Assembly: GCA_963782525.1 (NCBI GenBank) | Contig: CAWAKC010000001.1 | Coordinates: 1-64,000, forward strand | DNA: 64,000 nucleotides | Origin: Candidatus Bathyarchaeota archaeon | Lineage (GTDB): Archaea; Thermoproteota; Bathyarchaeia; Bathyarchaeales; Bathycorpusculaceae | Direction: 5' to 3' | Made by a program: the position numbers and the translations under genes | The notes under the pieces: model-generated | What the model saw: only the letters and a program-made list of their open reading frames with translations | Databases searched by the model: none | Told to the model about the DNA's origin: nothing | In this document: positions 4,501 to 57,491 of the stretch, one piece after another | Layout of the letters: each line of letters opens with the position of its first letter | Numbering within the stretch: the stretch's first letter is position 1

Positions 4501-4556
4501 AAAATATTCCTAGCAGACGAAGAAAAAAGAAATATTAAAAAAACTCTCAAACGCGA

Positions 4557-31736: not shown

Positions 31737-33283
31737 TTGGGTTTGTGGACATAGGAACAAATGCTGTGCGCCTTTTAGTTGTGAGGATAAATCCTAACTT
31801 CTCATATACCATTATCAGCCAAGAAAAAGAGGTCGTTAGGCTTGGTGAAGAAGAGTTCAAAGATAACATTTTAAAACCTAAAGCGATGGAACGAGCTATC
31901 TTTGTCTGTGGAAAATTTGCAAGTTTAGCCAAAACCTATGGCGCTTCTGAAATAATAGCTGTTGGAACCTCAGCCATTCGAGAAGCCCAAAATCAATGCG
32001 AGTTCCTCGAGAAACTTCATAATGAAACAGGTCTCAACGTGAATGTTATTTCGGGACAGGAAGAAGCCCGCTTGATTTGCGTAGGCGTGTCAAGCGGAGT
32101 TGATATTGGCGAAGAGAAAGCTATTTTCATCGATTTAGGTGGAGGCAGCACGGAAATTGCCATCGGCAATCAGCACGAATGTTTCTCCGTTGACAGTCTT
32201 AGGCTGGGGGCAATCAGATTAACAGCCAAGTTTATCGGCGAAGGTTGGACTGGTCCAATTGATAATAGTGTTTACAAGCGGATAAAACAATACGCCGAAG
32301 ACAAAGTTCGTCCATTAAAACCGAAAATTCAAGAGTACGGTGCCCGACGAGCATGGGGATCATCAGGCACAATAATTAACCTAGCGGAAGTTGCGAACAA
32401 ACTTTTCAAGAAAAATGGGAATGGCGGTGCTCTTACGCTGACAAGGAGGAATCTGAAAAAGCTGGCACCGATTCTCTATTCGCTTCCACTTGAAGAAAGA
32501 AAAAAGCTTCCTGCCTTAAACCCCGATCGAGCTGACATTATAATTGCGGGTGCAGCCACGATTGAGGTAATTATGGAAGAGTTCGGCCTCGAGGAAATCC
32601 GTGTTAGCCATAGAGAGCTTCGAGATGGATTACTTGTCGAGTACTTGTCGAATTTTGAGGGTTTCCGAGAACTACAAAAGACACCCATGAGAAACAGGAG
32701 CATTTTGCATTTGGGCAGGTCATGCAATTTTGATGAGAAACATTCAGAAACCGTAGCAACTTTGGCTTTGATGCTATTTGACAGCGCAAAACAAATTGGG
32801 CTACATAACCTCGGCGAGACAGAGAAAGAACTCTTGAAATACGCAGCAACCTTGCATGATGTCGGTGATTTTCTCTCATTTAATGATCACCAACTTCACT
32901 CACACTATATCATCTGCAATGCTGAACTTCTCGGTTTTGACAAAAAAGAAATTCAAATAATGGCAAATATAGCGCGTTTTCATAGGAAAAAATTGCCTTC
33001 TAAAAAAGCTCTGAAGAATACAGGATTAGACGAAAAAACTAATCAGGCCATCGCAGTTCTTTCCACGTTTCTTCGGTTCGCAGAAAAGCTTGATCGAAGT
33101 CACTGTTTCCTAGTAAAGAAGGCGGAATTTATTAAAAGCAGCAAAGAACAGGTACTGCTCTCATTTTATTCTGACTCAGATTGCAGCTTAGAAGAATGGA
33201 GCATCATTCAGAATCGGCAAGCATTCTATGAAGCCTTCGGAAAAGAGCTAAATGCCCATTGCACAGTGACACCTATCGCATAA
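31700..33283 (+). CDS. ppx: Exopolyphosphatase Ppx/GppA with HD domain
   Basis: DIGTNAVR, TSAIREA, ISGQEEA, DLGGGSTE, RADII and LHDVG. Confidence 0.95.
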   Translation: MEEKTVKAAGHVVGFVDIGTNAVRLLVVRINPNFSYTIISQEKEVVRLGEEEFKDNILKPKAMERAIFVCGKFASLAKTYGASEIIAVGTSAIREAQNQCEFLEKLHNETGLNVNVISGQEEARLICVGVSSGVDIGEEKAIFIDLGGGSTEIAIGNQHECFSVDSLRLGAIRLTAKFIGEGWTGPIDNSVYKRIKQYAEDKVRPLKPKIQEYGARRAWGSSGTIINLAEVANKLFKKNGNGGALTLTRRNLKKLAPILYSLPLEERKKLPALNPDRADIIIAGAATIEVIMEEFGLEEIRVSHRELRDGLLVEYLSNFEGFRELQKTPMRNRSILHLGRSCNFDEKHSETVATLALMLFDSAKQIGLHNLGETEKELLKYAATLHDVGDFLSFNDHQLHSHYIICNAELLGFDKKEIQIMANIARFHRKKLPSKKALKNTGLDEKTNQAIAVLSTFLRFAEKLDRSHCFLVKKAEFIKSSKEQVLLSFYSDSDCSLEEWSIIQNRQAFYEAFGKELNAHCTVTPIA

Positions 33284-33300
33284 TCAGAATTTGGAAGCGC

Positions 33301-34203
33301 TTATTCCTTTTCAAGTTCAGTCTTTGCTTTTTCCAAAGCTTCACATTGCTCTTTACTCAAAACAGGATATTTTAAATCCAACTTTTTAATTTGCGAAAGG
33401 ATAATGTCAGAAATCGATGCATGTGTAACCCATTTCTTGTCTGCAGGTATAATATACCAAGGTGCCCATTCGGTGCTTGTTTTGTTAAGCATATCCTCGT
33501 ACGCCGCCATGTAATCAGCCCATTTTGAACGTTCTGAAAGGTCTGTGAGCGAAAATTTCCATTCTTTATCTGGATTTTCAAGGCGTTTAAGCAAACGCTG
33601 TTTTTGCCTCTCCTTTGAAACATTAAGGAAGAATTTCAGCACTACCGTGCCGTTCCGAACCAGATGACGTTCAAAGAGATTTATGTCCTCGTACCGCTGA
33701 TTCCAGAAAAGTTTCCCTCCCTCGTCAGAAGGCAACTTCTGTTTTTCAAGAACTTCAGGTCGAACTTTAACTATCAACACATCCTCGTAGTAGGAACGAT
33801 TAAAAATTCCTATGCGCCCCCGTTCTGGAAGAGCTTTTTCGTGCCGCCACAGGAAATCGTGGTTTAGTTCCTCTTCGGTTGGAGTTTTGAAGCCTGTAAC
33901 TTGGCAGCCTTGCGGGTTAATGCCGGACATTACATGTCTGATTGTGCTATCTTTGCCTGCAGCATCCATCCCTTGAAGAATAATTAACATTGAATAGGTG
34001 CCGCTTGCCCAAAAAAGCTCCTGCATCTGAACCAATTGTTTTCTGTTTGTGTCAAGAATAGCTTGAGCTTGTTCTTTGACGCTTTTTTTGCCTTCTTTTT
34101 CTTCTTGTTTCTTAGCCCATTTTGGAACCCAACCTGAATCAAAAGAGTCCAAACTGACCGTTTTTCCGGCAGGCACTTTGAAGTTTACCGCATCAATCGA
34201 CAT
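33301..34203 (-). CDS. ppk2: Polyphosphate kinase 2 (class III-like)
   Basis: LQGMDAAGKDSTIRHV, FNRSYYEDVL, WKFS and APWYIIPADKKW. ATG 34203 preferred as start. Confidence 0.93.
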   Translation of the reverse strand: MSIDAVNFKVPAGKTVSLDSFDSGWVPKWAKKQEEKEGKKSVKEQAQAILDTNRKQLVQMQELFWASGTYSMLIILQGMDAAGKDSTIRHVMSGINPQGCQVTGFKTPTEEELNHDFLWRHEKALPERGRIGIFNRSYYEDVLIVKVRPEVLEKQKLPSDEGGKLFWNQRYEDINLFERHLVRNGTVVLKFFLNVSKERQKQRLLKRLENPDKEWKFSLTDLSERSKWADYMAAYEDMLNKTSTEWAPWYIIPADKKWVTHASISDIILSQIKKLDLKYPVLSKEQCEALEKAKTELEKE

Positions 34204-34309
34204 ACAAAACCGTCTCAAAGAGATTAAGTTATGGCGCCTAATATTAGCTGTGGCATAGGCAAAATGAGACTAAGTCTCTAAAGTTCGGAAATTGCTTTGA
34301 GTTGTTGGG

Positions 34310-34954
34310 TTAGCCTAAGTTTACTTTTTCACCTGTCACTATGTACACGATTGATTCGCAAATGTAGACTGCGTGGTCAGCAATACGCTCTAAATACCTA
34401 GTCATTAAAGCGCTCGATAAAACGCATTTACTATTGGCTTGCTCTCCTTTGATTAGCTTGTGAAGGTAATCAAAGTACATTTTGTCGACCTCGCGTTCAG
34501 TTTCTGAAACCGTTTTGGCAAGGATAATGTCCTGTTTTTTTAGGGCGTCTATGCTTATTTTAACCATTGAGAGGACTTTTTCGCTCATCTCGTCAATGTA
34601 GTCGCTTGTCCAAGTTTCACATTCTTTTAACCCATTCAATTGGTCGCTGATGAATGATATGTCAAGGGCATATCTGCCGTATCTTGCAAAGTCGTTGCCT
34701 ATTTTCATATAGGATTTGATAATTCTGAGGTCTGTGGCGACGGGTTGGAAGCGGGCAATTAACTGGAAAGTTTGGTCTTCAACTTTATCAGCCATTGAAA
34801 GGAGCATGTCTGAAAGTTCTCTGACTTGTTCTTGAACACTTTTGCCTTCGAGGTAGCCATGTATTGAAAAGGCAAGGGTTTCGTAGGTTAACTCGCCCAT
34901 CCTAACAATTAGCACTGATTGTTCTTCTAACCCGCGGTCAATTATTCTGCTCAT
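34310..34954 (-). CDS. phoU: Phosphate transport regulator PhoU
   Basis: QPVATDLR, EREVD and RYLERIADHA; follows pstB. Confidence 0.92.
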   Translation of the reverse strand: MSRIIDRGLEEQSVLIVRMGELTYETLAFSIHGYLEGKSVQEQVRELSDMLLSMADKVEDQTFQLIARFQPVATDLRIIKSYMKIGNDFARYGRYALDISFISDQLNGLKECETWTSDYIDEMSEKVLSMVKISIDALKKQDIILAKTVSETEREVDKMYFDYLHKLIKGEQANSKCVLSSALMTRYLERIADHAVYICESIVYIVTGEKVNLG

Positions 34955-34965
34955 TCTAAGCTCTC

Positions 34966-35763
34966 CTATCCGAATTCTCCTGTTATGTATTTTTCCGTTA
35001 ATGGATTTTTGGGAGATTCAAAAATGTCTCTGGTTGGTCCAAACTCAATCAGTGAGCCAAGGTACATAAAAGCTGTAAAATCGGATACACGCGATGCCTG
35101 CTGCATGTTATGGGTTACGATGACAACTGTATAATTGCGTTTAAGCTCAACTACCAACCGCTCAATCTTAGCAGTAGCAATCGGGTCCAAAGCTGAACAA
35201 GGTTCATCCATCAAGATGACCTCAGGCTGCAACGCGATAGCTCTTGCAATGCATAGACGCTGTTGCTGTCCCCCAGAAATGCTGGTCCCTGGCTTTTTCA
35301 ACTCATCTTTGACCTCATCCCAAAGGGTTGCTTGCTCTAAACTTCGCTTGACTACTTCGTCGAGATTTTTGCCCTTCTTTGTTCCCGTTAACTTTAAACC
35401 AGCAGCTACATTGTCATAGATGGACATTGTTGGGAATGGATTGGGTTTCTGGAAAACCATGCCAACTCTTCGGCGAACCTGTACGGAGTCAACCTGTTTG
35501 TCGTAGATGTTTTGTCCATCCAAAAGAATTTGCCCAGTCATTTTGGCGTTTGGAGTGAGCTCGTGCATTCGGTTTAGACAACGGATGAAAGTGGATTTGC
35601 CGCATCCTGAAGGGCCTATTATGGCGGTTACCGAGTTAGCTTTTATGTTTATGTTTACGTCTTTTAATGCTTGCTTGGGACCGAACCAAGCGTTCAAGTC
35701 TATACTCTGCATTTTCATTTTTGTGTCAACGACTTTTTCTTGAGAATTAATTGTGCTTGTCAT
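34966..35763 (-). CDS. pstB: Phosphate ABC transporter ATPase
   Basis: [37 protein letters not shown] and YITGEFG. Confidence 0.97.
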
Positions 35764-36590
35764 CTTTTGTTTCTACCTCTAGTTGCTAATCTAACGATTA
35801 TGTTAAGGCTTAACACCATCAAAATTAAGATAAGCGCTGCGCCCCAACCCTGTGCCTGCAAGTTGGCTTGTGGCTGTAGGGAATCGCGCCAGATTTCAAG
35901 GGGCAGGGCAGCCATGGGTTGGTTTAAGCCTTGGAAAAAGTACCTGTTACCCAAAATAGTCATTATTAATGGTGCGGTTTCTCCGGCAATTCGGGCAACA
36001 GCAAGAAGTGTACCCGTCAACAGTCCTGCTTTGGCTGTGGGTAACACGACGCTTAGGGTTGTTCGCCATTTGTGTGCGCCCAGCGCTAATGAGGCTTCTC
36101 GGACACTGTTTGGAACGAGTTTTAGGGATTCTTCAGTTGTTCGGGCCACGATTGGGATGAGGATGAAAGATAATGCGATGGCGCCGGCAATGGCCGAGTA
36201 ATGACCGATTAACCCAATTACGATTACACCATAGGCGGTTATGCCGACGACGATGGAGGGAAACTCGGTTAAGACGTCGTTGATTGAGCGCATAGCGGTT
36301 GCATACTTGTTGTTCCCGAACTCTGCAAGGTAAACGCCAGAGAGTATGCCCACGGGGATACCGATGACGCTAGTTAATCCAATCAAGATAAGGGTACCCT
36401 GTATTGCTGGTCCGATGCCTCCTGCGGAATTGTTGTTTAGCAGAAAGCCAAGGCTCAGTACAGGTGCGCCCCTTACAATGACTTCCCAAAGGATGCTAAT
36501 CAGAGGCGTAACCGCTATTATTACGCAAGCTGCACAGAGAATGAAGAAAAGGCGGTTCTTAAATTTCCTAAAAGCGTAATTGGAGATTAT
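35760..36590 (-). CDS. pstA: Phosphate ABC transporter permease
   Basis: [16 protein letters not shown] and RIAGETAPL. The frame stays open upstream of TTG 36386 to the pstC stop and encodes the first TM helix; only ATA/ATC are available as starts there. Confidence 0.92.
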
Positions 36591-37576
36591 TCGATTGCGC
36601 CTCCTTTAACCTTCAAAACTCGATGAACCATAATGCCTGCGCCAATGTTGATAAGTAAACTGATTATGAGCAAAATTAAGCCGACGCCAATGTAAGCCGA
36701 AACCTGCAAAGAACCTGTGGCTTCCAAAAACCCGTTAGCGATTAGTGAAGCCATGGTTTGACCCGGACGAAAAAGCGATGTCGGCATAGCCGCTGGTCCC
36801 GTGGCGTTGCCAATAAGCATAGAAACCGCCATCGTTTCACCGACAGATCTACCTAAGCCTAAGATGACAGCACCAAAGATGCCAGAACGACCGTAACTGA
36901 TAACCCAATGACGTATGGTCTCCCATTTGGTGGCTCCGATGCTGTAAGCGCCTTCACGGATGCTGTTGGGAACTGCGCTTATGACTTCTTTTGAGATAGA
37001 TGCAACTGTTGGAATTATCATGATTGCCAAGATTATTCCTGCAGTAAAAATATCCAAGCCAAAGGGTGTTCCACTGAAAATTGGAATCCAACCAAGGTAT
37101 GTAGAAATTGGTTTTTCTATATAGTCAAGAATCCAATAGCGGAAGATAAACAAGCCCCAGAGCCCATAAATTACGCTTGGGACAGCAGCCAATAGCTCAA
37201 CTAAGTATCCGATTGGCACTCTTAGCGTTCTAGGAGACATTTCAACAAGAAATATCGCTATACCTAAACTCAAGGGTACACCTATTAAGAGTGCAATGCC
37301 TGAGGTAACAAGTGTACCCATCACGTATGGGAGTGCACCATAGATTTCTCTGCCTTCAACTGGGTTCCAAGCGCTGCCAAAGAAAAAGTTTGCTCCAAAC
37401 TTTTGCACCACCGGCACGGATCCAGTTACAAGAACGTAACCTGTTACCATTAAGATAACAACTGCTGAAGCCGCTATGATTGCGGCTAAATTCTGGAAAA
37501 TGAAGTCGCCTGTTAATTTTGATTTAATTTTAGTAAAAAACTTTTGGGGGTGGGGCTGATTCAGAGCGTTATCCAC
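36587..37576 (-). CDS. pstC: Phosphate ABC transporter permease
   Basis: ELLAAVPSVIYGLWG, GATKWE and GRSVGETMAV. Confidence 0.95.
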   Translation of the reverse strand: MDNALNQPHPQKFFTKIKSKLTGDFIFQNLAAIIAASAVVILMVTGYVLVTGSVPVVQKFGANFFFGSAWNPVEGREIYGALPYVMGTLVTSGIALLIGVPLSLGIAIFLVEMSPRTLRVPIGYLVELLAAVPSVIYGLWGLFIFRYWILDYIEKPISTYLGWIPIFSGTPFGLDIFTAGIILAIMIIPTVASISKEVISAVPNSIREGAYSIGATKWETIRHWVISYGRSGIFGAVILGLGRSVGETMAVSMLIGNATGPAAMPTSLFRPGQTMASLIANGFLEATGSLQVSAYIGVGLILLIISLLINIGAGIMVHRVLKVKGGAIE

Positions 37577-37577
37577 C

Positions 37578-38696
37578 TTATGTTGTTGGGAGGTGTTGTC
37601 CGTTGAATGTTATGGATTGTATGGTTGTTTCGTCGATTTGCACTACGTTTGAGGGTAACTTTGCATAGGAAAGTCCTGGTGCCAAGTTTTGACCATCGTG
37701 GACGACGTACCAGAGGAATTGGACGAGTGCTGTGGCTTTTTCATTTGTCATGTCAGAAAGCACGTTGAGTTCCTTGTATACAATAAGGTAAGTAAAGCTG
37801 ACGATGGGGTATGCGTTTGCGTCTGGAGCGTTAAGGAGACTTACGCTTGTCCAACTTGCGTTGCCTGCGTGGCAAGCCGTTGATGCGCCTGACTGCACGG
37901 CTAATTGCGTTGAATCAAGACTGGGCAAAACCCAGTTTCCAGAGGGATTTTGGACCGCAGCTACAGTCATGTTGTTCTCGAGTGTATAAGCTAATTCGAC
38001 ATAGCCGATAGAATATTGATTCCCCTGCACTGATGAAGCAACACCGGTATTGCCGCTTGAACCTATTCCAACTGGCCATGACACTGATTTACCCTGTCCA
38101 ACCGAGCTGTTCCAAGACGTGCTTGATGCACTAAGGTAGCTGGTAAAGATAAAAGTCGTTCCTGAACCATCAGAACGGTGAACAGAGTTAATTCCCTGTG
38201 CTGGAAGAGTAGTATTTGGATTTAGGTTTTGGATTGCGGGGTCATTCCACATTGTTATTTTGCCTTGGAAAATGTCTGCGATTATTGGACCAGTTAAATG
38301 GAGACCAGAAGATACGCCTGGCAAATTATAAGCAATTGTAACTGCACCGATAGTTTCAGGAATATGCAACGCATTGGGCACATTAGCTGCATCAGCGGAT
38401 GTAAGAGGAGCATCGGAGGCTGCAAAATCCACAGTCGCTTGCGACAACTTGTAAGCAGATATTCCACCACCGCTACCGATTGGTTGATAATTTACTTGAA
38501 CGTTGGGCTTCACGTTTGCTGTGTAGTTCGTTATCATCGAGTTAAGGAGAGGGTAGGGAAATGTTGCCCCCGCGCCCTGCAAAGTTATCGATGAAGATGA
38601 AGACGAGGGTCCTGAGAGGGAAATGTACGCCACAACTGACCCGAGAATAATTGCGATTGCCACTATTGCTATCACTACGGCATATTTAGTGTTCAT
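37578..38696 (-). CDS. pstS: Phosphate-binding protein, N-terminally anchored
   Basis: GAGATFPYP, GSGGG, RSDGSGTT and IGYVE. ATG 38696 preferred over 38804. Confidence 0.95.
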   Translation of the reverse strand: MNTKYAVVIAIVAIAIILGSVVAYISLSGPSSSSSSITLQGAGATFPYPLLNSMITNYTANVKPNVQVNYQPIGSGGGISAYKLSQATVDFAASDAPLTSADAANVPNALHIPETIGAVTIAYNLPGVSSGLHLTGPIIADIFQGKITMWNDPAIQNLNPNTTLPAQGINSVHRSDGSGTTFIFTSYLSASSTSWNSSVGQGKSVSWPVGIGSSGNTGVASSVQGNQYSIGYVELAYTLENNMTVAAVQNPSGNWVLPSLDSTQLAVQSGASTACHAGNASWTSVSLLNAPDANAYPIVSFTYLIVYKELNVLSDMTNEKATALVQFLWYVVHDGQNLAPGLSYAKLPSNVVQIDETTIQSITFNGQHLPTT

Positions 38697-38792
38697 ATTT
38701 TTTATCCTCGTTTTTGTATAACTAACTAATGTACAGTGGTTATATAGTAAATCTCCATAAAATTTATAGACTATATAGAGATACCTAATATA

Positions 38793-39878
38793 ATGACAAC
38801 CCATAAAAAGAGTTACTTGGAGTCAAGCGTGTCAAAAGAACCAGAAAAAGTAAGCGAAGAGCAACGTAAACTTCAGGTAACCGGCGGCTCAACATTCATA
38901 CTTTCCTTACCTAAAGATTGGGCAACCAAAAATGAACTCAAACGCGGAAGTGCAATGATTGTCCGCGAAGAAGAGAACGGCTCACTATCGATCGCCCCGT
39001 CAAGTTTTCCCAAACAAGAAAAACAAGACGAAGCATTCATCAAAGCATCAATAAACGATAATCCTGATGCAGTCATGAGAACAGCAATATCCGCCTATTT
39101 GAGCGGCTTCAACGTTCTCCACATCAGAGCACAAGGACAAAAAGTGCTTTCCTCAAAACTTAGAAACCACCTCAAAAGCTTTGCCAGAAACTACTTAGTC
39201 GGAACAGAAATCGTAATCGACACTCCAGCCGAATTAACCCTACAGGTCTTACTAAACTATCCTGAACTTACCGTTCAAAACGCATTAAGCAGGATGGGAA
39301 TAATCGCTTCATCCATGCATAAAGAAGCCATCGCAGCACTAAAAAAACTCGATTATCCCAGTGCTAAAGCTGTAATAGAAACTGACCGTGAAGTAAACCG
39401 CTTCAGCCTCTACATTGTAAGGCTTCTGAAATTGGCTGTTTCAAACCAGAGAGTCGTCAAAGAAATCGGTTTAACTAACCAAAAAGAATGCCTAGGCTAC
39501 CGACTCATAACAAAAGCCGTTGAAAGAACCGCTGATCACGCAACAAAAATGGCAGAAAATACCCTGCAACTAAAAGAACCCGTAAATGAAGACCTTTTAG
39601 AAAAGATAAGCGAGCTGAGCGGTTTAGCTATTTCAATGTTTGAAAGTTCCATGGAAGCGTTATTTAAGCACGATTTTAACTTGGCTGAAAGCGTGATCGA
39701 AAAACTAAGCCAAATTCATAAGGTTGAGAAGGAAGCTGTTTTGTGTTCGCAGACGGCTAAGGTTGAAGAAATCGTTAACTTGAGACTGCTGATTGAGAGC
39801 GTTAGACGAACCGCAGAATATGCCAGCGACATTTCAGAAGTTGTTTTAAACTTGAATGTCGAATCGGTCCTGAGTTAA
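38793..39878 (+). CDS. Archaeal phosphate-uptake regulator (AbrB N-domain + PhoU repeats)
   Basis: RKLQVTGGSTFILSLPKDW, DREVNRF, ERTADHA and RRTAEYASDI; divergent from pstS. The true start may be TTG 38817 or GTG 38829. Confidence 0.9.
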   Translation: MTTHKKSYLESSVSKEPEKVSEEQRKLQVTGGSTFILSLPKDWATKNELKRGSAMIVREEENGSLSIAPSSFPKQEKQDEAFIKASINDNPDAVMRTAISAYLSGFNVLHIRAQGQKVLSSKLRNHLKSFARNYLVGTEIVIDTPAELTLQVLLNYPELTVQNALSRMGIIASSMHKEAIAALKKLDYPSAKAVIETDREVNRFSLYIVRLLKLAVSNQRVVKEIGLTNQKECLGYRLITKAVERTADHATKMAENTLQLKEPVNEDLLEKISELSGLAISMFESSMEALFKHDFNLAESVIEKLSQIHKVEKEAVLCSQTAKVEEIVNLRLLIESVRRTAEYASDISEVVLNLNVESVLS

Positions 39879-40063
39879 CCTAAGATTTTTTTCTTTTGTC
39901 AACTTTTTGCTTTTGAATTCAAAAAAATGCTCGTACGGACCTCCCTCGATAGCGGTACGGCAATAATTGGAAATATGTCCTAAAGAAACTTGATTCAAGG
40001 AACTTAATGATGAAAAACGCAAAATTTTTTTGTTGCAGAAAAATAAAAAGTGGGGTAGATTGT

Positions 40064-41332
40064 TTAGGTTGTTGGCAATGTTTGCCCGTTGAAGGTTATT
40101 GATTGAATGGTTGCTTCATCGATTGTTACGACGTTTGCTGGTAGCTGTGCGTATGCTTGTGCTGGTGCTTGGTCTTGGCCGCCGTGTACCATGTACCATA
40201 GGAATTGTACTAGTCCTGTAGCGTCACTTTGAGTCATGCCTGGAATCACATTGAGTTCTTTGTAAACAATTGTGTAGCTGAAGCTAACTATTGGGTAAGC
40301 GGTTGCTTCTGGTGCGTTGAGTATGTTTACGTTTGACCAGCTTGCGCTTCCTGCTGGTAACCCTGCTGAAGCGACTGATTGACCGGCAACTGTTGTTGAT
40401 TGTAGGGAGGGCAAGATGAAGTTTCCTGAGGGGTTCTGTACTGCTGCAACTGTCATGCTGTTTTGCAATGCATATGCCAATTCAACGTAGCCTATTGCAT
40501 ATGGTTGTCCGTGAACTAATGACGCAACGCCTGTGTTACCGTTGGAACCAAGCCCTGTTGGCCATGAAACTGCTTTGCCTTGACCAACTGAGGTGTTCCA
40601 GGCTGAACTTGAGAGGCTAAGGTATCCAGTGAAAACAAATGATGTTCCTGAGCTGTCTGAGCGGTGAACTACCACTATGGATTTTGCTGGAAGAGTCACG
40701 TTAGAATTTAAGGCTGCAATTGCTGGGTCATTCCATACTGTTATGGTGCCTTGGTATATGTCTGCGATGATTTTGCCTGTTAAGTGAAGGCCTGAAGCGA
40801 TTCCTGGTAGGTTGTATGCGATGGTTACTGAGCCGATGGTTTCTGGAATATGCAGTGCGTTGGGTATGTTTGCCGCGTCAGTTGCGCTTAAGGGTGCATC
40901 TGAGCATCCGAAGTCAACTGTTTTTTGGGTTAGCGCTGAGATTCCGCCGCCGCTGCCGATGGATTGGTAGTTTACTTGTACGTTCGGTTTTGCATGTGTG
41001 TAATTGATTATCATGGCGTTAAGTAATGGGTATGGGAATGTTGCTCCTGCACCAGTCAAAGATACTGGCGCTGGGGTTGGGGTTGGACTGGGCGATGCTG
41101 TTGGTCCCGCTGGGGGAGTTGGGGAAGCTGTCGGGTGAGTGGTTGGGCTTGTGGTAGGTGCTAGTGTTGGTACAGAAGTTGGGCTAGCCGTTGGCGCGGT
41201 AGTGGGTGCTGGGGTTGGCGTTGGTGTGGGCTGTGTGCCTGTATTTGAACCTAAATAAGTGTAAGCTGCTACTGAGCCAATTATTATGGCGATTACAACT
41301 ATTGCTATTGCGATTGAATATGTTGCTTTCAT
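40064..41332 (-). CDS. pstS: Second phosphate-binding protein with a Pro/Thr-rich linker
   Basis: Same motifs as the first pstS (GAGATFPYP, RSDSSGTS) plus a PT-rich stalk of about 55 aa. Confidence 0.95.
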   Translation of the reverse strand: MKATYSIAIAIVVIAIIIGSVAAYTYLGSNTGTQPTPTPTPAPTTAPTASPTSVPTLAPTTSPTTHPTASPTPPAGPTASPSPTPTPAPVSLTGAGATFPYPLLNAMIINYTHAKPNVQVNYQSIGSGGGISALTQKTVDFGCSDAPLSATDAANIPNALHIPETIGSVTIAYNLPGIASGLHLTGKIIADIYQGTITVWNDPAIAALNSNVTLPAKSIVVVHRSDSSGTSFVFTGYLSLSSSAWNTSVGQGKAVSWPTGLGSNGNTGVASLVHGQPYAIGYVELAYALQNSMTVAAVQNPSGNFILPSLQSTTVAGQSVASAGLPAGSASWSNVNILNAPEATAYPIVSFSYTIVYKELNVIPGMTQSDATGLVQFLWYMVHGGQDQAPAQAYAQLPANVVTIDEATIQSITFNGQTLPTT

Positions 41333-47212: not shown

Positions 47213-47632
47213 CTAATCTTTCAAGAATGTGGTAGGGCTGAGTGCTTGAATAGAAAATTACAATCATGCAACCTTGCAGAACACTTTATGCCGCCTTCCA
47301 TTTAGGTATCAACGCCTTACCACATACAAAAACGGCTTTTCTTCTTGGGAAAGCATCAGTTGTTAGGGGCGAAGATAGGGAGGGGAAATATGATGAGCCT
47401 TCAAGAGGGTCCTCGATGAATTTAGGGGATTTACCTTCTTTGGCTCTGATGATCGTTGGCTCTACCTTAAATCTGGCAATCCGAACCTTTGCGAGAACTG
47501 TTTTGGTCCACTCATTGGCAGTTCAGTTGCTCCAGGCTTGGTTTTCGGTGAAGGCCCAACGTAAGTGGCAAGAGCCCAAAGTCGTCATACAAGACGCTAT
47601 CACAAAAATCTGCACTTAACCCTTCTTTTCTT

Positions 47633-48943
47633 TCATACAATATCTGATCGGTTAAGCTTAGCGCTTTTTCGATACCTAATTATCAAAGCAGCAGAGAAAA
47701 CTGATAAAAGCAAGGGCAGGATCGCTAACCAAGATAACTCTGGGACAGAAGGAGTAGGATTTGTTGGTGAGTTTGATGGTTGTGGTGTCGAATTTGGATT
47801 GGAAACGTCTATTTTTGTCAACCAAGGTGCAATAGCAGTTGTGTTTATGCTTGAGTAGCCTGAGAGTGCGTAGCCGCCATCACTTGTTTGAATCACGCAA
47901 CTGGGTTGCCCAGTAAGATTCATAGCCCATTGTTCCTTACCAGCAGTATCTACTTTAACCAGCCGTAGGCCAGCCAACGCAAAACCCTCGTCACTTGTTT
48001 TAGTCATTGCAAAGGTTGGTCCCGCACCATAATAGTTCGTCCACTGTTCATTGCCCAAAGCATCTGTTTTTGTAATAGCCATGTTTTGGCCTCCTCCGTT
48101 GGAGCGGAGCCATATCCATCCACCTAAAGCGTAACCGTTGTCACTGGTTTGCGCAACAGTGCAAAGAAAGTTCATGTCTTGGTGAACAAAGGTTTTGTTC
48201 CAGTCTTGATTTCCGCTTGAATCAGCCTTAATAAGAAGGTAAAAGGAATTAGGTTGCTGGGTCTGCCCGCCAATAGCATAGCCCCCATCGCTAGTTTGGA
48301 TCAACGAGTTTGCATCCCCTAAACCGTAAGTTTTACTCCATTGCAGACCACCAGACGAATTAGTTTTTACAAGCCAAACTGTGTGGGTATAAGACGGAGG
48401 AGGAAAGACATGTCCTGTATAGTAATTTGAAACGGAAAGCACTGCAAAGCCTCCATCGCTGGTTCGGATTATGGCGCTTGGAATACTGGTTCCTGATCCA
48501 GCGTAAGATTGTCGCCATTGTTCTTTGCCGTATGCGTCTATTTTTATTAATGCTATCTTGTTTTGGTATTCAGCTATTGCTGCAAAGCCGCGGTCTGATG
48601 TTTGAATCAAATATTGTCCGCTGTCAACATCAAAAATAGAGCCAGTATAGCTGCCATTCCATTGCTGGTTACCGTTCGAATCAACTTTAACGATGTAAAA
48701 CACACCGCTAGCGTAGTTCGGGTCGTTGGAATTGTAATTAGTGGACAATAGTGCATACCCGCCGTCTGCAGTCTGAATAATGGTTTTCGATAGTTCGCCA
48801 AAACCAGGGTAAGTTTTGCTCCAAGCAGTCGATTGATTAACCTGAGCGTTAACCCCGGTATTTGTGAATAGACAAATGGCAAACGACGCAATCACGATAA
48901 CTGTTGTAACTTTGATTAGAGATTTAGCCCCATCTGAAATCAT
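47633..48943 (-). CDS. Secreted beta-propeller-like repeat protein with a C-terminal anchor
   Basis: Repeats QTSDGGYA...L.K.D..G..QW.K.Y; signal peptide; VPEL + TM + basic tail. Confidence 0.85.
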   Translation of the reverse strand: MISDGAKSLIKVTTVIVIASFAICLFTNTGVNAQVNQSTAWSKTYPGFGELSKTIIQTADGGYALLSTNYNSNDPNYASGVFYIVKVDSNGNQQWNGSYTGSIFDVDSGQYLIQTSDRGFAAIAEYQNKIALIKIDAYGKEQWRQSYAGSGTSIPSAIIRTSDGGFAVLSVSNYYTGHVFPPPSYTHTVWLVKTNSSGGLQWSKTYGLGDANSLIQTSDGGYAIGGQTQQPNSFYLLIKADSSGNQDWNKTFVHQDMNFLCTVAQTSDNGYALGGWIWLRSNGGGQNMAITKTDALGNEQWTNYYGAGPTFAMTKTSDEGFALAGLRLVKVDTAGKEQWAMNLTGQPSCVIQTSDGGYALSGYSSINTTAIAPWLTKIDVSNPNSTPQPSNSPTNPTPSVPELSWLAILPLLLSVFSAALIIRYRKSAKLNRSDIV

Positions 48944-49414
48944 TTTTTTCTACTTTCTCTCACCTAAAGCATCTGTGGCGTTATGTTATAAATCTTGACT
49001 AATCCCGGTTCTTAAAATAATTCGAGTCGTTTTTGCAGGAGTAATTGGTTTGTCTAATAGATATGGTTCTTTGGTTAATGTTCTGGTTATGGCAGGCGTG
49101 ACTGTCAATGATGGTGTGATCTCTGCCGATGAAACTGTGGGTGCGGTGGAAGAGCAGTCGCGAATCCTTTACCTGATCCCAAAGAGTGCCCGCTACAGCC
49201 AAAGGAAGACTCAAGCAAGAGAAAGGTTGCAGACAAAAAGCACTAATAGTTTATTAGCCTAAACACGTCAACAAAACTCGAGACGAACACAAGTGTCTCA
49301 AAATAACCCGCGCGCAATTTTTAGACCAAGAGGGCATAGGAAATTATCAGATTTGAGTTTAACAAAAAATTGGCTAAAGGTTGAGCCTAATCATTTTTCC
49401 GAAGTATCTCGCTT

Positions 49415-49555
49415 ACTTGCATTAGCACCCATAGGGCTAAGAATGAAATGACCAAGCATTAGCGCGCACGGAGCGAGGAGAAGTAAACGCTTGCTTGCAA
49501 GAGGTTAGCCCGATAAATTACACTAATAAGCGCTTGCTCGTAAGCAATTGCACGG
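49415..49555 (+). repeat. Non-coding repeat family A, copy 1
   Basis: CTTGCATTAGCACC...AAGAATGAA...AGCGAGGAGAA.TAAACGCTTGCTTGCAAGAGGT...CTAATAA.CGCTTGC...TAAGCAATTGCAC is shared with 56025-56163. Confidence 0.85.
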
Positions 49556-49598
49556 AAGAATATTGGCTAAATTGTTTTCAAAGAATTCTTTGCAAGGA

Positions 49599-49636
49599 TA
49601 ATTAAGAATTATGCTGGTAATTCCCATGATAATTAT
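49599..49636 (+). repeat. Symmetric 63-bp element, copy A (core + right half)
   Basis: TAA-TTAAGAA-TTA-TGCTGGTAATTCCCAT-GATAATTAT. Confidence 0.75.
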
Positions 49637-49876
49637 ACTCAAAAAGCCCAAAGCTATAGTCAGCGTAGAAAGCGGTAATCTCAAGGGGGTTATTAAAAAT
49701 TATACTGTAAAAATAGCGGATAATTATGGGTTTTTAGTTGTCTTACAAGCTAAAAGTTGATAGTTAAAAATATCATCCGATAAGTCTTTTATAGAAACAG
49801 CAGACAATAATCTGTTCGCATCTCATAATTTTACTTCTTCAGTTTTGAAGCGAATCTTCCAAGTCTTTTTGCAACT

Positions 49877-50479
49877 TCAGGAGCATTTCTTGTTAATCTT
49901 TTCAAACAACTCCACAAATGTTTCCTCTGATTGTGCGCCTGTTATTCTGTATTTGCCATTTACAATGAATGTTGGTACACCGCTAATATCGAGCTTTTTA
50001 GCTTCAGCACAGTTATCAGCAAAACTGTTTTGATACAATGGATTCTTTAAACAGTCTTCAATTTCTTTTCTATTTAGACCAATTTTCTCGCAAATTTCAA
50101 AAAGCACAGATTCTTTTCCAATATCAAGACAACGTTCAAAATAGGCTTTGAAGACCTCATGGGTGAATTCTTGATTTTTGCCGACTTTTCTAGCGTATTC
50201 ACCAACTATCAATGCCTTTTTTGAATTCGAAAGGAGTTTAGCATCACAGAAGTTAAGACCATACTCTTTTCCTCTGAACCTGAGATTTTCATACATCTCT
50301 TCTATTCCATAGATTCTTCCGCTTAGGTCTACTCCTTCTTCGGGTGTTTCAGGGTGGATTTCTATGCCGATGTGTTCTATTTCTATGTCGAATTTGTTTT
50401 TGAGTTTCTGAATGATTGCTTCACCCAGATAACAGAAAGGACAAATATAGTCTGAATACATCTTGATTTCAATCTTCAT
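49877..50479 (-). CDS. DsbA/FrnE-family thioredoxin-fold oxidoreductase
   Basis: SDYICPFCY, ISGVPTF and GAQS. Confidence 0.92.
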   Translation of the reverse strand: MKIEIKMYSDYICPFCYLGEAIIQKLKNKFDIEIEHIGIEIHPETPEEGVDLSGRIYGIEEMYENLRFRGKEYGLNFCDAKLLSNSKKALIVGEYARKVGKNQEFTHEVFKAYFERCLDIGKESVLFEICEKIGLNRKEIEDCLKNPLYQNSFADNCAEAKKLDISGVPTFIVNGKYRITGAQSEETFVELFEKINKKCS

Positions 50480-50503
50480 CTAATCACTTTTAATCTGTTA
50501 GCT

Positions 50504-51268
50504 TTATTTTTGAAGGTTAAGCATCTCCTTGACGAGAGCTAAACCTTTTTGAGTTATGATGTAATCTCCCTTCGATGATTCTTGAGCTATCAACTTTGCA
50601 TTAACCAGTTTCTTTAAGTGGAATGCGAGATGACCAGCTTTGAGGTCTACGATTTTTGACAACTCAGAGAAACTCTTCTTTCCATTGTACACACTAGCTA
50701 GTAATTTGAGCCGTGAATCATTTCCTAAAGGTTCAAACAAGTTCTGCAAAAGAAATGGAATATCTAAAGACTGATTGTTAACCATCTTATCATTGCTAAC
50801 ATCTTTAACCAAGACTATTTCTTGGTACGCTCTTTTTTCACGCTTTAACTTCTTATCAAAGTTAGAAAAACAGTTTCCGCATTGCTGACCTTTGGTCTTT
50901 TCAACCATCAACTCGGTCTTAGCTATTCTGTCATCTAAATCTGCGAGAGCGACTTTTATTCCAGATTGTTTGATAACTTGTGTGTTTTCTTCTATTGTGT
51001 TTTTGTAATGCTCAAGACATTTGTTTCTGTTTTGGCAATCTTCTTTGACTAACAGAGCAATGTCTTGATTTAGAGATTGAGACCTCTGACCAGCATAGAC
51101 CAATAGGTGATTTTGCGAAAGAGTATCTTCAATTGCACGAAGACGTTCCTTTAAAACAGTTTCTTCTACCCTGTTCATGTCTGCTCTTAAACCTTTTATC
51201 TCCATCTTCAACTCAGCTATTGCACCAATTAAGTAATCGGATGATGAATCCTTGCCTGTGTTAGCCAA
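50504..51268 (-). CDS. ArsR-like winged-helix regulator with a Cys-containing N-terminal domain
   Basis: C-terminal EPLGNDSRLKLL..FSELS..GHLAFHLKKL..YIITQKG; four Cys in the N-domain. Confidence 0.85.
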   Translation of the reverse strand: MANTGKDSSSDYLIGAIAELKMEIKGLRADMNRVEETVLKERLRAIEDTLSQNHLLVYAGQRSQSLNQDIALLVKEDCQNRNKCLEHYKNTIEENTQVIKQSGIKVALADLDDRIAKTELMVEKTKGQQCGNCFSNFDKKLKREKRAYQEIVLVKDVSNDKMVNNQSLDIPFLLQNLFEPLGNDSRLKLLASVYNGKKSFSELSKIVDLKAGHLAFHLKKLVNAKLIAQESSKGDYIITQKGLALVKEMLNLQK

Positions 51269-51364
51269 ATACTGTACTTCCCTTTCATTTGCTGAGTATA
51301 TTCTAATTCCCTAAAAGTATATTAGAGTTTTGCAGCTATGCTTACATTATAGGATGTGTAAATT

Positions 51365-51763
51365 TTGGTAAGTATACCTAAAGAAGTAATGGATGTTTTA
51401 AGTGCAAGTGATTCAGCGAAAATGATAGCAACTATAGACGATAAAGGCATTCCAAACGTAGTTCCATTATGGTTTGTAGTAGTAGACTCCGAAACTATTG
51501 CGTTCGCAGAAGTTTTCATCAAGAAAACAAAAGAAAATCTTGAAAAAAACAAGCAAGTTGCTCTTGCAGTGTTCAAAGGACCAATGACAGGCTACCAACT
51601 AAAGGGAACATTCAGTGGTTTCCAAACAAGTGGACCAATTTTCGATAACTTCGCAAAGAAGAGTATGGAAACCATGAAAATGAAAATAAAAAGTGTTGGC
51701 ATAATAAAAGTCACAGAAGTCTTCTCTGCTTCGCCAGGACAAGGTAGCAAAAAACTAGCATAG
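51365..51763 (+). CDS. Pyridoxamine 5'-phosphate oxidase-like FMN-binding protein
   Basis: ATIDDKGIPNVVP, KTKENLEKNKQVA and GYQLKG. Confidence 0.88.
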   Translation: MVSIPKEVMDVLSASDSAKMIATIDDKGIPNVVPLWFVVVDSETIAFAEVFIKKTKENLEKNKQVALAVFKGPMTGYQLKGTFSGFQTSGPIFDNFAKKSMETMKMKIKSVGIIKVTEVFSASPGQGSKKLA

Positions 51764-51842
51764 ATGCAAACGTTTTACAAAACTCTCAAACACTTTTTTC
51801 TTTTTGTTGTCTATTTTAGGTTCAATATTTAGGTGATTTGAG

Positions 51843-52019
51843 ATGTCAGGTGAGATAGAAAAACAAGTCGAAGAAATCGTTAATGAAAAAGCCACTGCCG
51901 AAAGAATATCAAGTGTTATAGACGTTGCTGGTAAGGAATTTCCCTGCTTAACATGCGCTTCGAGAGATGAATGTGGAAGCTTTAAATGGTTTAATAAGTG
52001 GTTTGGAACAAAAATTTAA
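51843..52019 (+). CDS. 58-aa small protein with a CxxC...C motif (below the ORF-track cut-off)
   Basis: AGGTGA SD, ATG 51843, MSGEIEKQVEEIVNEKATAERISSVIDVAGKEFPCLTCASRDECGSFKWFNKWFGTKI-stop. Confidence 0.75.
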   Translation: MSGEIEKQVEEIVNEKATAERISSVIDVAGKEFPCLTCASRDECGSFKWFNKWFGTKI

Positions 52020-52106
52020 CTCTGGACAAGAGTAGTTATTTCGTAACTTATTGCGGTTTATCCTCTCAGCTTCATAACAAACTCTTGAAACAACGGCACC
52101 TAAGTA

Positions 52107-52169
52107 ATAATTATCCCATCTTTATCCAGTCTAATTAAGGATTATGTTGGTAGTTACCCTTGTTAGCGC
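52107..52169 (+). repeat. Symmetric 63-bp element, copy B (right outer arm decayed)
   Basis: ATAATTATC-N16-TAA-TTAAGGA-TTA-TGTTGGTAGTTACCC. Confidence 0.75.
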
Positions 52170-52194
52170 AACCGTTAGCATAAGCTCGGAAAAC

Positions 52195-52488
52195 TTAAGG
52201 AACGCTATCGAGGATTTCAAATATTTCCAGAGTTGGCTGAACTCCGTTCCTTTGGAATAGTTCAATTGCTTTGGGGGTCTTTGTGCTACTTCTCATTTTA
52301 TCTAGAGCGTCTCTGTTTTCCCAAATTGTTTGAATCCTGTAACTTTCAGGGGTCTTGCTGTTCCTTAGAAGTAAGGATGATACTAAGCCTGGCGGAACTG
52401 GCTCTCTTTTAGCTGACGCAAAATTCGCTTCAAATTCCTTGGCTCTTAAATTTGGCACCTTTCCCTCGACTATTGTAATTACTTGCAT
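52195..52488 (-). CDS. ABM-like (dimeric alpha/beta barrel) small protein
   Basis: EFEANF, PPGLVSS.LL, YRIQTIWENRDAL pattern. ATG 52488. Confidence 0.7.
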   Translation of the reverse strand: MQVITIVEGKVPNLRAKEFEANFASAKREPVPPGLVSSLLLRNSKTPESYRIQTIWENRDALDKMRSSTKTPKAIELFQRNGVQPTLEIFEILDSVP

Positions 52489-52545
52489 GAAGAATCCCAA
52501 TTAAAGAATGAATGTCTTCACTTCATAAGTATTACTTTTGGGCTA

Positions 52546-52608
52546 ATAATTATCAAGGGATTTTCGTCACTAATTAAGAATTATGGTGGTAACTCCCAAG
52601 ATAATTAA
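52546..52608 (+). repeat. Symmetric 63-bp element, copy C
   Basis: ATAATTATC-AAGGGATTTTCGTCAC-TAA-TTAAGAA-TTA-TGGTGGTAACTCCCAA-GATAATTAA. Confidence 0.85.
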
Positions 52609-52704
52609 GCCATTAATTGTTAACTGTTGACCAGGATGGCAAATCTTTGCGCTCGCAGCAAATAAGATAAACTATTTACGTCGTTACCAAATAAGTAGAA
52701 GGCA

Positions 52705-53211
52705 ATGAGAAAGATAACACTCATATCAATACTCATAGGCGTCTTACTAGTCGCATCGGGTTTTGTGTACTTCCAGAGCCTACAAAAACCCTCAGTTCCC
52801 TTGCTTACCCCAACACCGACCCAAGCAACACAAAACCCTTCTCTTATTAAGATCGCGAACTTTTCATTTACTGGCTATTACAACCCAGTGAATCAAGAAT
52901 GGAATTATCAATTCCAAGTCCAAGTCCAAAATGAACAAACAAGTGTCAATAACGGTGCAACTCTGACTTTTGATATTTTGAACAATTATACTATGCATAG
53001 GCAAATTGTAATCGGTGAACCCACAGTCCGCTATTTACCGCCAGGTGAACAATACCTTTTAGGCACAATTAAACCTGGGGAAAAAATAACAGTGAACGGT
53101 TTTATTGAAAACAACTTGGGTGACGATGCCAAACTAAGAGGCAGTACTTTTGTCGCTTACCTTAAGGTCAACAATACTCTTTTCGATGAGAAAAGCATAC
53201 TCTTAGACTAA
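52705..53211 (+). CDS. Membrane-anchored hypothetical protein (beta-sandwich-like)
   Basis: N-terminal TM, PT linker and beta-rich domain. Confidence 0.8.
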   Translation: MRKITLISILIGVLLVASGFVYFQSLQKPSVPLLTPTPTQATQNPSLIKIANFSFTGYYNPVNQEWNYQFQVQVQNEQTSVNNGATLTFDILNNYTMHRQIVIGEPTVRYLPPGEQYLLGTIKPGEKITVNGFIENNLGDDAKLRGSTFVAYLKVNNTLFDEKSILLD

Positions 53212-53268
53212 TTTGAATTTCTAGCTAGCGCTGCTGATTCTTGCGCAAAGTTAGCGTAGGTTGGGTAG

Positions 53269-53331
53269 ATAATTATCAGGGGATTTTCAGTGCCAATTAA
53301 GAATTATGTTGACATTTCCTGTGATAATTAT
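53269..53331 (+). repeat. Symmetric 63-bp element, copy D
   Basis: ATAATTATC-AGGGGATTTTCAGTGC-CAA-TTAAGAA-TTA-TGTTGACATTTCCTGT-GATAATTAT. Confidence 0.85.
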
Positions 53332-53638
53332 GCCATCAAACTGTGAGCAATCTAAGCAGTCCTTCGAGCGAGAAACCACCATTTATCTATTCAACAGTCA
53401 AGAAAGTTTGACCAAATCTGGTAACTGTCAGCTCTATCTTAATCAAGGTTTGAGACTGTGTGATAACTCAATTGCTTTTCAAAAAATTGCTGATTTGCTC
53501 GCAAAAAGCAATGGCTGATAAAACGGCTTTTAACAACAATGAAGCAATTTTCAAAATCCAAACTGACTTTTTACACAGTCTCGTTTCTTGACAAAAATAC
53601 CTATAAGGCGATAACTTCATGACTATTTCTGATAAGAA

Positions 53639-55954: not shown

Positions 55955-56024
55955 CCATAAATGACCTTATCCCAAACAAGTTTAGGTTGAGTGCTAAATT
56001 ATTTTTGTTTTGGTGAATCTCTCC

Positions 56025-56163
56025 TGCTTGCATTAGCACCTTTGGGGCGAAGAATGAAGCTACAAAGCATAGCACGCACGAAGCGAGGAGAATTAAACGC
56101 TTGCTTGCAAGAGGTCTAACTCGAATAATTAACTAATAATCGCTTGCCTTTAAGCAATTGCAC
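56025..56163 (+). repeat. Non-coding repeat family A, copy 2
   Basis: Diverged direct copy of 49415-49555. Confidence 0.85.
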
Positions 56164-56239
56164 CAGAAATAGTGAGCAAATTACTCTCTGCAAAGTAACA
56201 AAAATTTGCACTAACCCTCTTTTTTCTATGGGCTCTTTA

Positions 56240-57041: not shown

Positions 57042-57491
57042 TGCTCTTACCTCTGAAGCCGCAAATGAACCATACTTACAGGCAGACCCATTTTCAATAA
57101 AAGCTTTCTGGGCAAATTTCCTTAACTAAACTTAGACAAGGTTTCTTGACAAAGCAGTTAAGACCTTGGTGAATCGAATGTATGGCAATTTTACTAATGT
57201 TCAGGTTATGGCAGCCGTGACTGACAGCGATTGTTTGAACCCTGCGATGCTGAGTTGATCACGTACTTGGTAAAGCCTGATTCAAATTAACCTCTCTAAA
57301 GGATAATCAGATTTCATCCAACGATGAGTTGAATCGAACTAAGCTCAGATAATTCTGCTGAGCTAAAGAAATAAACCTAATACGGAATCTACAGAAACCT
57401 TGACTAAGCCCAGGCAGAAAGTTTGACAAATAATCACTTAAGCAGCTTAACCTCATTATATTACAGGAATGTCAAATTCCAGGTGCCTAAA

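Follow-up and report, generated by a model that had tools for sequence, protein, structure and literature searches.

Array of 63-bp elements in the window

The window analysed here is a stretch of 64,000 nt (C1:1-64000) from the Bathyarchaeia genome G000, which comprises 2.87 Mb in 12 contigs and is 95.8% complete. It carries four same-strand copies of a 63-bp element, made up of a left arm (L), the core AATTAAGAATTAT and a right arm (R), along with a fifth variant copy. The copies separate small groups of genes, and an earlier interpretation made from the letters of the window (the sequence-only reading) had proposed that they form a cassette array for site-specific recombination. In the direction of the sites the order was X-core-R, the variant site, a four-gene module, L-core-R', an ABM gene, L-core-R, a gene for a 168-aa membrane-anchored protein and L-core-R, with the cassette genes on both strands. 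The features of the array are as follows.

49406-49460 (Z box) and 49473-49599 (X box), + strand: conserved non-coding left flank of the first site (blastn, alignments)
49574-49636, + strand: entry junction X-core-R, with core 49600-49612, right arm 49613-49636 and no left arm (E 1.4e-7)
49680-49727, + strand: variant second site, core-like TATTAAAAATTAT and a right-arm-like stretch ending GATAATTAT (60% copy)
49637-52106: Cassette A, four genes (Pfam)
49877-50479, - strand: DsbA-like gene of Cassette A (Pfam)
50504-51268, - strand: gene for a winged helix-turn-helix (wHTH) protein, Cassette A (Pfam)
51365-51763, + strand: PNPOx-like gene of Cassette A (Pfam)
51843-52019, + strand: 58-aa open reading frame of Cassette A
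52107-52169, + strand: junction with variant left arm, core 52133-52145 (one mismatch), inner right arm and decayed outer right arm
52170-52545: Cassette B, ABM-family monooxygenase-like gene at 52195-52500, - strand (Pfam)
52546-52608, + strand: complete L-core-R site, core 52572-52584 (E 5.4e-17; hairpin z -2.5)
52609-53268: Cassette C, 168-aa protein with hydrophobic N-terminus at 52705-53211, + strand (no family match)
53269-53331, + strand: complete L-core-R site, core 53295-53307 (E 6.6e-17), the last recognisable site of the array
56017-56182, + strand: repeat of Z (56017-56070) and X (56080-56182), lacking both core and right arm

Direct reading and repeat finding both confirmed the four copies, on one strand and at the positions reported before. 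Repeat finding returned a five-member direct family whose common part was AATTAAGAATTAT and the right arm after it, and a 79-nt pair at 52538 and 53261. As had been claimed, the copies at 52546-52608 and 53269-53331 are complete, the copy at 52107-52169 has kept its left arm, core and inner right arm and lost the outer right arm, and the copy at 49599 is a right half, consisting of core and right arm fused to unrelated left sequence. The variant second site lies about 90 bp past the first site, and this double-site layout was also found in genomes G055, G001 and G002 and in a phage-like metagenome contig. Full copies follow the pattern ATAATTATC-N16-(T/C)AATTAAGAATTAT-N15-GATAATTAT. The 13-mer core on its own, with up to 2 mismatches, matched the window 8 times against 4.78 expected, and 8 matches were reached in 10 of 100 shuffles; chance can account for the core by itself in the window, but not for the whole element. 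Scans of the window with Rfam (gathering threshold) and for tRNA gave no match.

Copy number and structure of the element

To assess copy number, an nhmmer profile built from three full copies of the element was run against G000. Full copies were detected with E-values of 5e-17 to 7e-17 and partial copies with 1e-7 to 0.04. Only nine loci were found at E < 0.05, and rescanning the genome with half-site profiles, for which 29 left and 40 right halves were used, returned the identical nine. These comprise two arrays, one in the window and one at the ilvC locus on the same contig, and two sites in proviruses. Complete L-core-R copies are those at 52546, 53269 and C1:178195-178256 (-). A foreign left flank is joined to core and R at 49574-49636, C1:178971-179007, C4:8527-8579 and C3:457155-457190, L and core are joined to a foreign right flank at C1:177466-177505, and the copy at 52107 is an L-core with half-decayed R. 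Scatter of the kind expected of a miniature inverted-repeat transposable element (MITE) or a repetitive extragenic palindrome (REP) was not seen and this class was rejected, with every copy at a cassette border in the two arrays or in a provirus.

Structure was evaluated on an alignment of 17 full sites from nine genomes. Arm spacing was free of gaps in all 17, in agreement with the constant spacing claimed, and the arms were partly complementary as proposed, with 76.5% of mirrored positions pairing as compared to 35-52% when the partner was slid. The dyad symmetry extends through the core, whose centre is TAATT-AAG-AATTA, into both arms. DNA folding gave hairpin z-scores of -1.7 to -5.9 in five of six sites. 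Arm covariation was observed at 10 pairs changed on both sides as compared to 6.3 in shuffles (10 was reached in 4 of 500), although slid controls gave 7-8 doubly changed pairs, so that this signal is weak. Sites were found at tail-tail, head-head and tail-head gene junctions alike, as the sequence-only reading had noted, and genes lay in both orientations with no fixed promoter distance.

Empty targets and a one-cassette difference at the ilvC locus

In the second array of G000, which lies between ilvC and a DUF3795 gene, three sites bound two cassettes of one gene each. In the orientation of the sites the order is ilvC start, X'-core-R, a 171-aa membrane protein, L-core-R, a DUF1801 protein, L-core-Y and the DUF3795 gene. 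This layout is as expected if two circles with one L-core-R each had been inserted successively into X'-core-Y.

We compared this locus across the genus, using 60 other species-level genomes. The ilvC gene was found in 54 of the 61 genomes (G000 and 53 of the 60 relatives); 30 of these loci were fetched, one of them without upstream sequence. The core TAATTAAGAATTAT was present within 160 nt upstream of the ilvC start in 28 of the 29 loci read and missing in one. Next to the core, the 28 loci read by eye had an R arm (16), a decayed R-like arm (5), a CCCTSA-type sequence (4; G016, G022, G029 and G049) or other sequence (3). As a CCYTSA sequence also follows the terminal L-core at the occupied loci of G000, G041, G002, G044 and G035, the four CCCTSA loci are unoccupied targets of the form X'-core-Y. 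The stretch common to all copies and the empty target is 13-14 bp, (T)AATTAAGAATTAT, and the 7-bp core claimed earlier could not be distinguished within it. In G016 a remnant of the DUF3795 gene begins ~106-130 bp from ilvC; the DUF3795 gene borders the far end of the locus in ten other genomes, at a distance that rises with the insert. Far junctions were visibly decayed in some genomes, for example G023 and G001.

G000 and its relative G010 are closely similar, with IlvC proteins 99% identical and window-array DNA 95-98% identical. At the ilvC locus 730 bp were present in G000 only and the flanking alignments overlapped by 46 bp, corresponding to core plus R, which makes the difference exactly one cassette. 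The locus also recurred in metagenome contigs, where scanning for core plus R matched at least 126 contigs; all metagenome locus counts given here are among the matches listed. In 16 of 88 loci the site lay 15-50 nt from an ilvC start in the expected orientation. A stricter pattern of L plus core plus GTTRG gave no match in metagenome contigs.

Cassettes recur in different flanks among relatives

Relatives were scanned with a sequence-only covariance model made from four copies of the element. It was found in 29 of the 60 other species of the genus, and 40 genomes outside the genus gave a single weak match (E 0.005). Matches cluster, and the 20 regions fetched were ordered R-half, full sites, L-half along the site orientation. 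Co-orientation, following the asymmetric core, held in every fetched array except two loci with sites on both strands. One array of G010 repeated the 439- and 723-bp spacings of the window. Lengths of core-to-core segments spanned 80-6661 bp (median 887 bp; n=31, one duplicated G044 region counted twice), and the longest may hide decayed sites.

The 48 proteins scanned for domains included the cassette genes and the flanking ilvC and DUF3795 genes of the arrays, and none of the 48 had a recombinase or transposase domain. Cassette genes encoded DUF1801 proteins (six), the DsbA/wHTH/PNPOx module, histidine kinases, a nitroreductase, and GNAT, methyltransferase, beta-CASP and PAP2 proteins. Others encoded cation-efflux and ABC transporters, a glycosyltransferase, and NosD- and PQQ-type surface proteins.

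Three cassettes recurred in differing flanks with homology stopping at the cores. The four-gene module (window 49596-52148) matched a G044 segment with another left flank and another next R arm, at 92% identity over 2561 nt; the match opens 4 nt ahead of one core and extends 3 nt past the following one. The two module copies of G044 lie in a 4.5-kb duplicated region and were counted as one context. The ABM cassette (52170-52545) had a core-to-core match at 93% in G001:C1. The DUF1801 cassette was present at ilvC in G010, G041 and G055 and also in a non-ilvC array of G012, where the match begins at the core. Gene content between copies thus differs among relatives with breakpoints in the core, and the cassette-array proposal is supported in that neither fixed promoter distance, scatter nor invariant content was found.

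Four public DNA runs were also assessed, in which 40-62% of the sampled words were present, as low-depth contigs. Loose ends at 49598 and 49636 derive from the ilvC-locus copy of a G010-like strain. The sole joint in these contigs corresponded to a 135-bp stretch just past the last site (53448-53582), which was absent from G010 and from the contigs of three of the four soil or sediment runs and is a population indel.

Sites beside variable cargo in proviruses

The two remaining sites of G000 lie in two related head-tail-type proviruses, on C4 (~1-39 kb) and on C3 (from 451.8 kb to the end of the contig), which share blocks of 82-91% identity. Both encode a large terminase (phrog_2, E 4e-30; PF03237) and a phage-family ATPase/GNAT pair, and their cargo differs at two positions. 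In each, an internal X-core-R lies between the leader of a small conserved gene and variable cargo, which is a 1104-aa CheB-CheR-PAS-histidine kinase on C4 and a 667-aa NosD-like surface protein on C3. A third related element, on a metagenome contig, had the same layout with a wHTH protein and a 299-aa protein as cargo, and shared the double site seen in the window at 49599 and 49690. A 369-aa proviral protein picked by eye as the portal was dropped, as it had no PHROG or Pfam match. An exact-pattern scan of viral contigs returned six loci with the core but no arms, which were rejected as chance matches in unrelated viruses.

The X box at the first site of the window is homologous to the X flanking cargo in the C4 and C3 proviruses, where a 55-bp Z box follows the GNAT gene beyond the cargo. 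Proviral cargo is bordered in the order X...Z (X of 127 bp, Z of 55 bp), and the two boxes abut as Z-X in the window and in G002:C5. In both of these the array is closed by a second Z, accompanied by X in the window, so that window 49406-49599 and 56017-56182 form a direct repeat around the array and two NosD-like genes. The boxes map to 4529-4584 and 8585-8686 of L002 (C4) and to 1943-1998 and 8585-8640 of L040 (G002:C5), and occur also in L003 (C3). The Z-X layer may be the sign of a larger mobile unit or of a further step of recombination.

Three parts of the window (47346-47633, 49062-49131 and 57177-57279) contain pieces of 50-110 bp that are 82-96% identical to scattered, non-adjacent parts of the C4 provirus (13.0-17.2 kb). 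They sit among surface-protein genes and resemble debris of a decayed provirus or shared intergenic modules.

Proposed mechanism

Precise core-to-core gain and loss at 13-14 bp shared with an otherwise unrelated target makes conservative site-specific recombination the simplest mechanism. We consider it probable that one Bathyarchaeia genus has a gene-cassette system of its own, with the 63-bp elements as recombination sites, in which circular cassettes are inserted and excised conservatively by a recombinase acting in trans. A cassette would be ~0.45-4.5 kb long, with one to four genes and no recombinase, and as cassette genes occur in both orientations they would have their own promoters. 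It would be at least transiently circular, with one complete site of L arm, core (T)AATTAAGAATTAT and R arm. The recombinase would exchange strands inside the core and require little of the target beyond it; candidate targets would be the 100-bp ilvC/DUF3795 spacer, the X-core site of resident head-tail proviruses and any site already in an array. Insertion would yield flank-core-R (cassette) L-core-flank, and repeated insertion would build tandem arrays with internal L-core-R junctions, co-oriented because the core centre is asymmetric, with excision as the reverse. Such a mechanism would produce what we observed, namely sites, arrays, hybrid junctions, empty targets, a one-cassette difference and identical cassettes in other flanks. 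The enzyme is most likely a tyrosine recombinase, and the arms may be binding sites for the recombinase or accessory proteins, by analogy with the P arms of lambda attP.

Evidence weighing against recombination in trans

Several observations weigh against this mechanism. A recognisable L arm was missing at many junctions, including 74 of 113 metagenome sites, an excess that is partly ascertainment as the scan demanded an intact R. Left and right arms of the same junction complemented each other at 7.59 of 15 positions as compared to ~6.5 by chance (permutation p 0.002), and those of the same cassette showed no excess (6.72, p 0.2), a combination not predicted by a simple central-crossover model. 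No cassette-skipping joint, excision junction or circle was detected in the public runs, whose low-depth contigs are uninformative on circles, and a terminal overlap indicating a circular contig was seen in none of 91 metagenome loci.

The search for the enzyme adds to these points, apart from the candidates themselves, which count in favour of the mechanism. G000 encodes at least six full-length tyrosine recombinases (C1:2101-3618, C3:121017-122390, C3:145894-146982, C6:36014-37291, C6:74060-74746 and C8:86016-87527), and no serine recombinase was found in it. Host XerA had been proposed as the enzyme, but no XerA orthologue was found in the 95.8% of the genome that is represented (NF040815, best score 76.3 bits vs a cut-off of 220), and IntI was not found among five of its tyrosine recombinases (TIGR02249, 68.2 bits vs 265). 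No recombinase was found in the cassettes or beside the examined arrays of G000, G001, G010 and G012, and one lay within 3 kb of a site in 2 of 88 metagenome loci. The other enzyme proposed earlier, the integrase at window 2101-3618, fared no better. It and C8:86016-87527 are intact copies, 95% identical, of a 505-aa tyrosine integrase whose family occurs in 37 of the 60 genus genomes, frequently at contig ends; the window copy adjoins a creatininase-family gene and not obvious viral genes, and the C4 provirus has a copy broken by two stops (TAG, TAA). This family was present in 19 of 29 genomes with sites vs 18 of 31 without, and a zinc-ribbon integrase family in 24 of 29 vs 28 of 31. The presence of these two abundant families does not co-vary with the sites.

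Individual candidates were assessed as well. The zinc-ribbon integrase of G000, a 426-aa tyrosine recombinase with the ribbon at its N-terminus (C6:36014-37291; L004 8015-9295), lies in an apparent small integrated element and has an L-core-like half site 750 bp upstream (C6:35261-35301; L004 7261-7301; E 0.02-0.4), but no such site was found near 19 relatives of it or 15 other integrase loci. A 456-aa recombinase of C3 occurs in 2 of 60 genomes, and an all-against-all comparison of 19 tyrosine recombinases from five genomes gave no shared orthologue. The only Cas1 of G000 is a fragment with five in-frame stops (C3:270900-271463; L127 9249-9560) among sugar-metabolism and transporter genes, with no PolB adjacent and no CRISPR array within 20 kb. 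Cas1 was found in 9 of 29 genomes with sites vs 17 of 31 without, and not in the seven most site-rich (G002, G010, G012, G043, G044, G055 and G041).

Alternative explanations

The Cas1 counts bear on the leading alternative, under which the cassettes would be non-autonomous, target-specific transposons, with R and L as ~24-bp terminal inverted repeats, the 13-14-bp core as a target duplication and arrays formed by re-insertion. Casposons give 14-15-bp target duplications, and flank-core-(R...L)-core-flank is formally the same pattern as a targeted transposon with a 13-14-bp duplication, which also counts against recombination in trans. R resembles the reverse complement of L, the outer nine bases most, and no site-specific recombinase is tied to the sites. 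We nevertheless regard transposition as unlikely, as Cas1 is broken in G000 with no PolB or CRISPR beside it and does not follow the sites among relatives, and no transposase domain was found in or beside cassettes. The L end is missing from many cassettes, the two arms of one cassette resemble each other no more than randomly paired arms do, and dyad symmetry running through the core into the arms suits a dimer-bound crossover site better than an arbitrary target. The same palindromes could be regulatory or structural intergenic elements (a promoter/TATA module, operator or REP-like terminator), with gene turnover a by-product of homologous or microhomology recombination. The core and outer arms are AT-rich and similar to an archaeal TATA box, and hairpin folding of the sites is feasible. 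Genus-wide the core is found 15-50 nt ahead of the ilvC start, even where no cassette is present, so that it may double as part of the ilvC promoter, perhaps as its TATA box. Empty targets share just 13-14 bp, which is too short for ordinary homologous recombination, yet several cassettes are found exactly there, and regulatory palindromes, being symmetric, would not be expected to keep strict co-orientation within an array. A purely regulatory explanation fails on the empty-site comparison, on the small number of copies (nine in 2.87 Mb, all at cassette borders) and on the absence of any constant position relative to gene starts, as the sites occur at junctions of head-head, tail-tail and head-tail type; we hold it to be improbable.

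Least probable, in our estimate very much so, is a diverged form of a known system, either a true integron (attC/IntI) or Xer-dif with IMEX- or pdif-like modules inserted at a chromosomal dif by XerA. Imperfect palindromes part the cassettes as in integrons, and the ilvC-side core is almost genus-wide. The inner right arm TTATGTT has what we take to be a likeness to the XerD side of bacterial dif, and this earlier suggestion remains a resemblance. Sites of pdif type alternate in orientation, while those described here are co-oriented. The dif of Thermococcales is flanked by ~23-bp AT-rich inverted repeats (PMC2958812), so that its overall size is similar to that of the 63-bp site. On the other side, XerA and IntI were not found in G000, the sites end in ATAATTATC and GATAATTAT and not in RYYYAAC/GTTRRRY, exchange is central and not at the edge of the site, and genes lie in both orientations. 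In four single-contig genomes ilvC is not opposite the cdc6 genes, its distance being 9-250 kb to the nearer paralogue and 0.5-0.7 Mb to the farther.

Comparison with known systems

The gene-cassette system proposed here works like an integron or an attP/attB system and is a member of neither family. As in integrons, small cassettes without their own recombinase and with diverse accessory cargo stand in tandem co-oriented arrays, parted by imperfect palindromic, hairpin-capable sites of ~60 bp. Phage integrons have reportedly been seen, and the elements described here are on viruses too. The attC site of integrons ends in R'' (RYYYAAC) and R' (GTTRRRY) with L''/L' inner repeats. The present site is unrelated in sequence, and the 17 aligned full sites had neither R'' nor R', as the sequence-only reading had stated for the window. 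Crossover here would occur at the centre of the palindrome, leaving a half site at each cassette end, whereas an integron cassette bears a whole attC at one end. Integron cassettes are mostly promoterless and co-oriented, unlike the genes here, which point both ways with no logic of a common cassette promoter (Pc). No IntI was found, and the targets are a core-only ilvC site and a proviral site and not an attI by intI. By membership the system is not an integron. Arrays often stand without an adjacent integrase, as also in CALINs, and the archaeal integrons in print use bacterial-type attC and IntI (Ghaly et al. 2022, PMC9668308).

The 13-14-bp common core, hybrid attL/attR-type junctions and empty target in relatives are like lambda attP x attB, as are the minimal target, the mobile partner with extended arms on both sides and the tandem insertions at one locus. 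Unlike lambda-type elements, the units are single genes or small modules without integrase, replication or virion genes, and the two arms are inverted copies of each other. By comparison dif is a 28-bp site of two 11-bp arms and a 6-bp spacer, chromosomally unique and near the replication terminus; the neighbours of the core TAATT-AAG-AATTA are weakly symmetric when set against this 11-6-11 layout. Xer-exploiting elements (IMEX) and the pdif modules of Acinetobacter plasmids are said to be modules bounded by short sites and moved by an enzyme encoded elsewhere. The cassettes are likewise small recombinase-free modules bounded by short recombination sites in tandem arrays at one chromosomal site, but no Xer was found, the site is 63 bp with a 13-bp core, and sites are co-oriented. 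In a 2021 review of archaeal tyrosine recombinases (PMC8371274) the word 'cassette' does not occur, and the only comparable case noted is tandem integration of whole archaeal elements at one locus. Inverted ends, a ~14-bp repeated target sequence, target specificity and tandem insertions are shared with casposons. Another study lists casposons as a class of integrated elements in Thaumarchaeota (PMC6563490). The present units differ in being gene cassettes of 0.45-4.5 kb with no associated Cas1 or PolB.

Nothing like the present system was found in a limited literature search, which is not proof of absence, and the only archaeal cassette-capture platforms it returned were canonical integrons, with attC and IntI of bacterial type. 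In the present system both the site and the crossover geometry differ, and the outcome is that of integrons, in a widespread uncultured lineage. A more speculative possibility, which we put forward tentatively, is an independently evolved archaeal analogue of the integron, a cassette-exchange network of chromosomes and head-tail viruses in one genus served by a recombinase family not yet recognised as such. The suggestion of such a family comes from the lack of XerA, IntI, serine recombinase or intact Cas1 together with the lack of an integrase that tracks the sites. As viruses bear the same entry site (X-core) beside variable cargo, they would pick up host cassettes as morons and might ferry them between species. 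The comparative record is unusually clean, as it contains unoccupied targets, two near-identical genomes set apart by one cassette, and cassettes that turn up again in other places. This provides a testable handle on the exchange of accessory genes for redox, transport, sensing and surface proteins in Bathyarchaeia and on how their viruses gain cargo. Recombination at the 63-bp site could be reconstituted and might serve as a tool.

Other genes of the window

An 857-aa protein encoded at 10941-13514 (-) had an N-terminal match to Tubulin_2 (PF13809, E 4e-12), a tubulin/FtsZ-like GTPase domain, followed by a long C-terminal part. A polyphosphate/phosphate island at 27245-41332 encodes PPK1, an 836-aa CHAD-metallophosphoesterase-Ppx fusion, Ppx/GppA and PPK2, as well as two PstS-like binding proteins, a permease and a MazE-domain PhoU protein.

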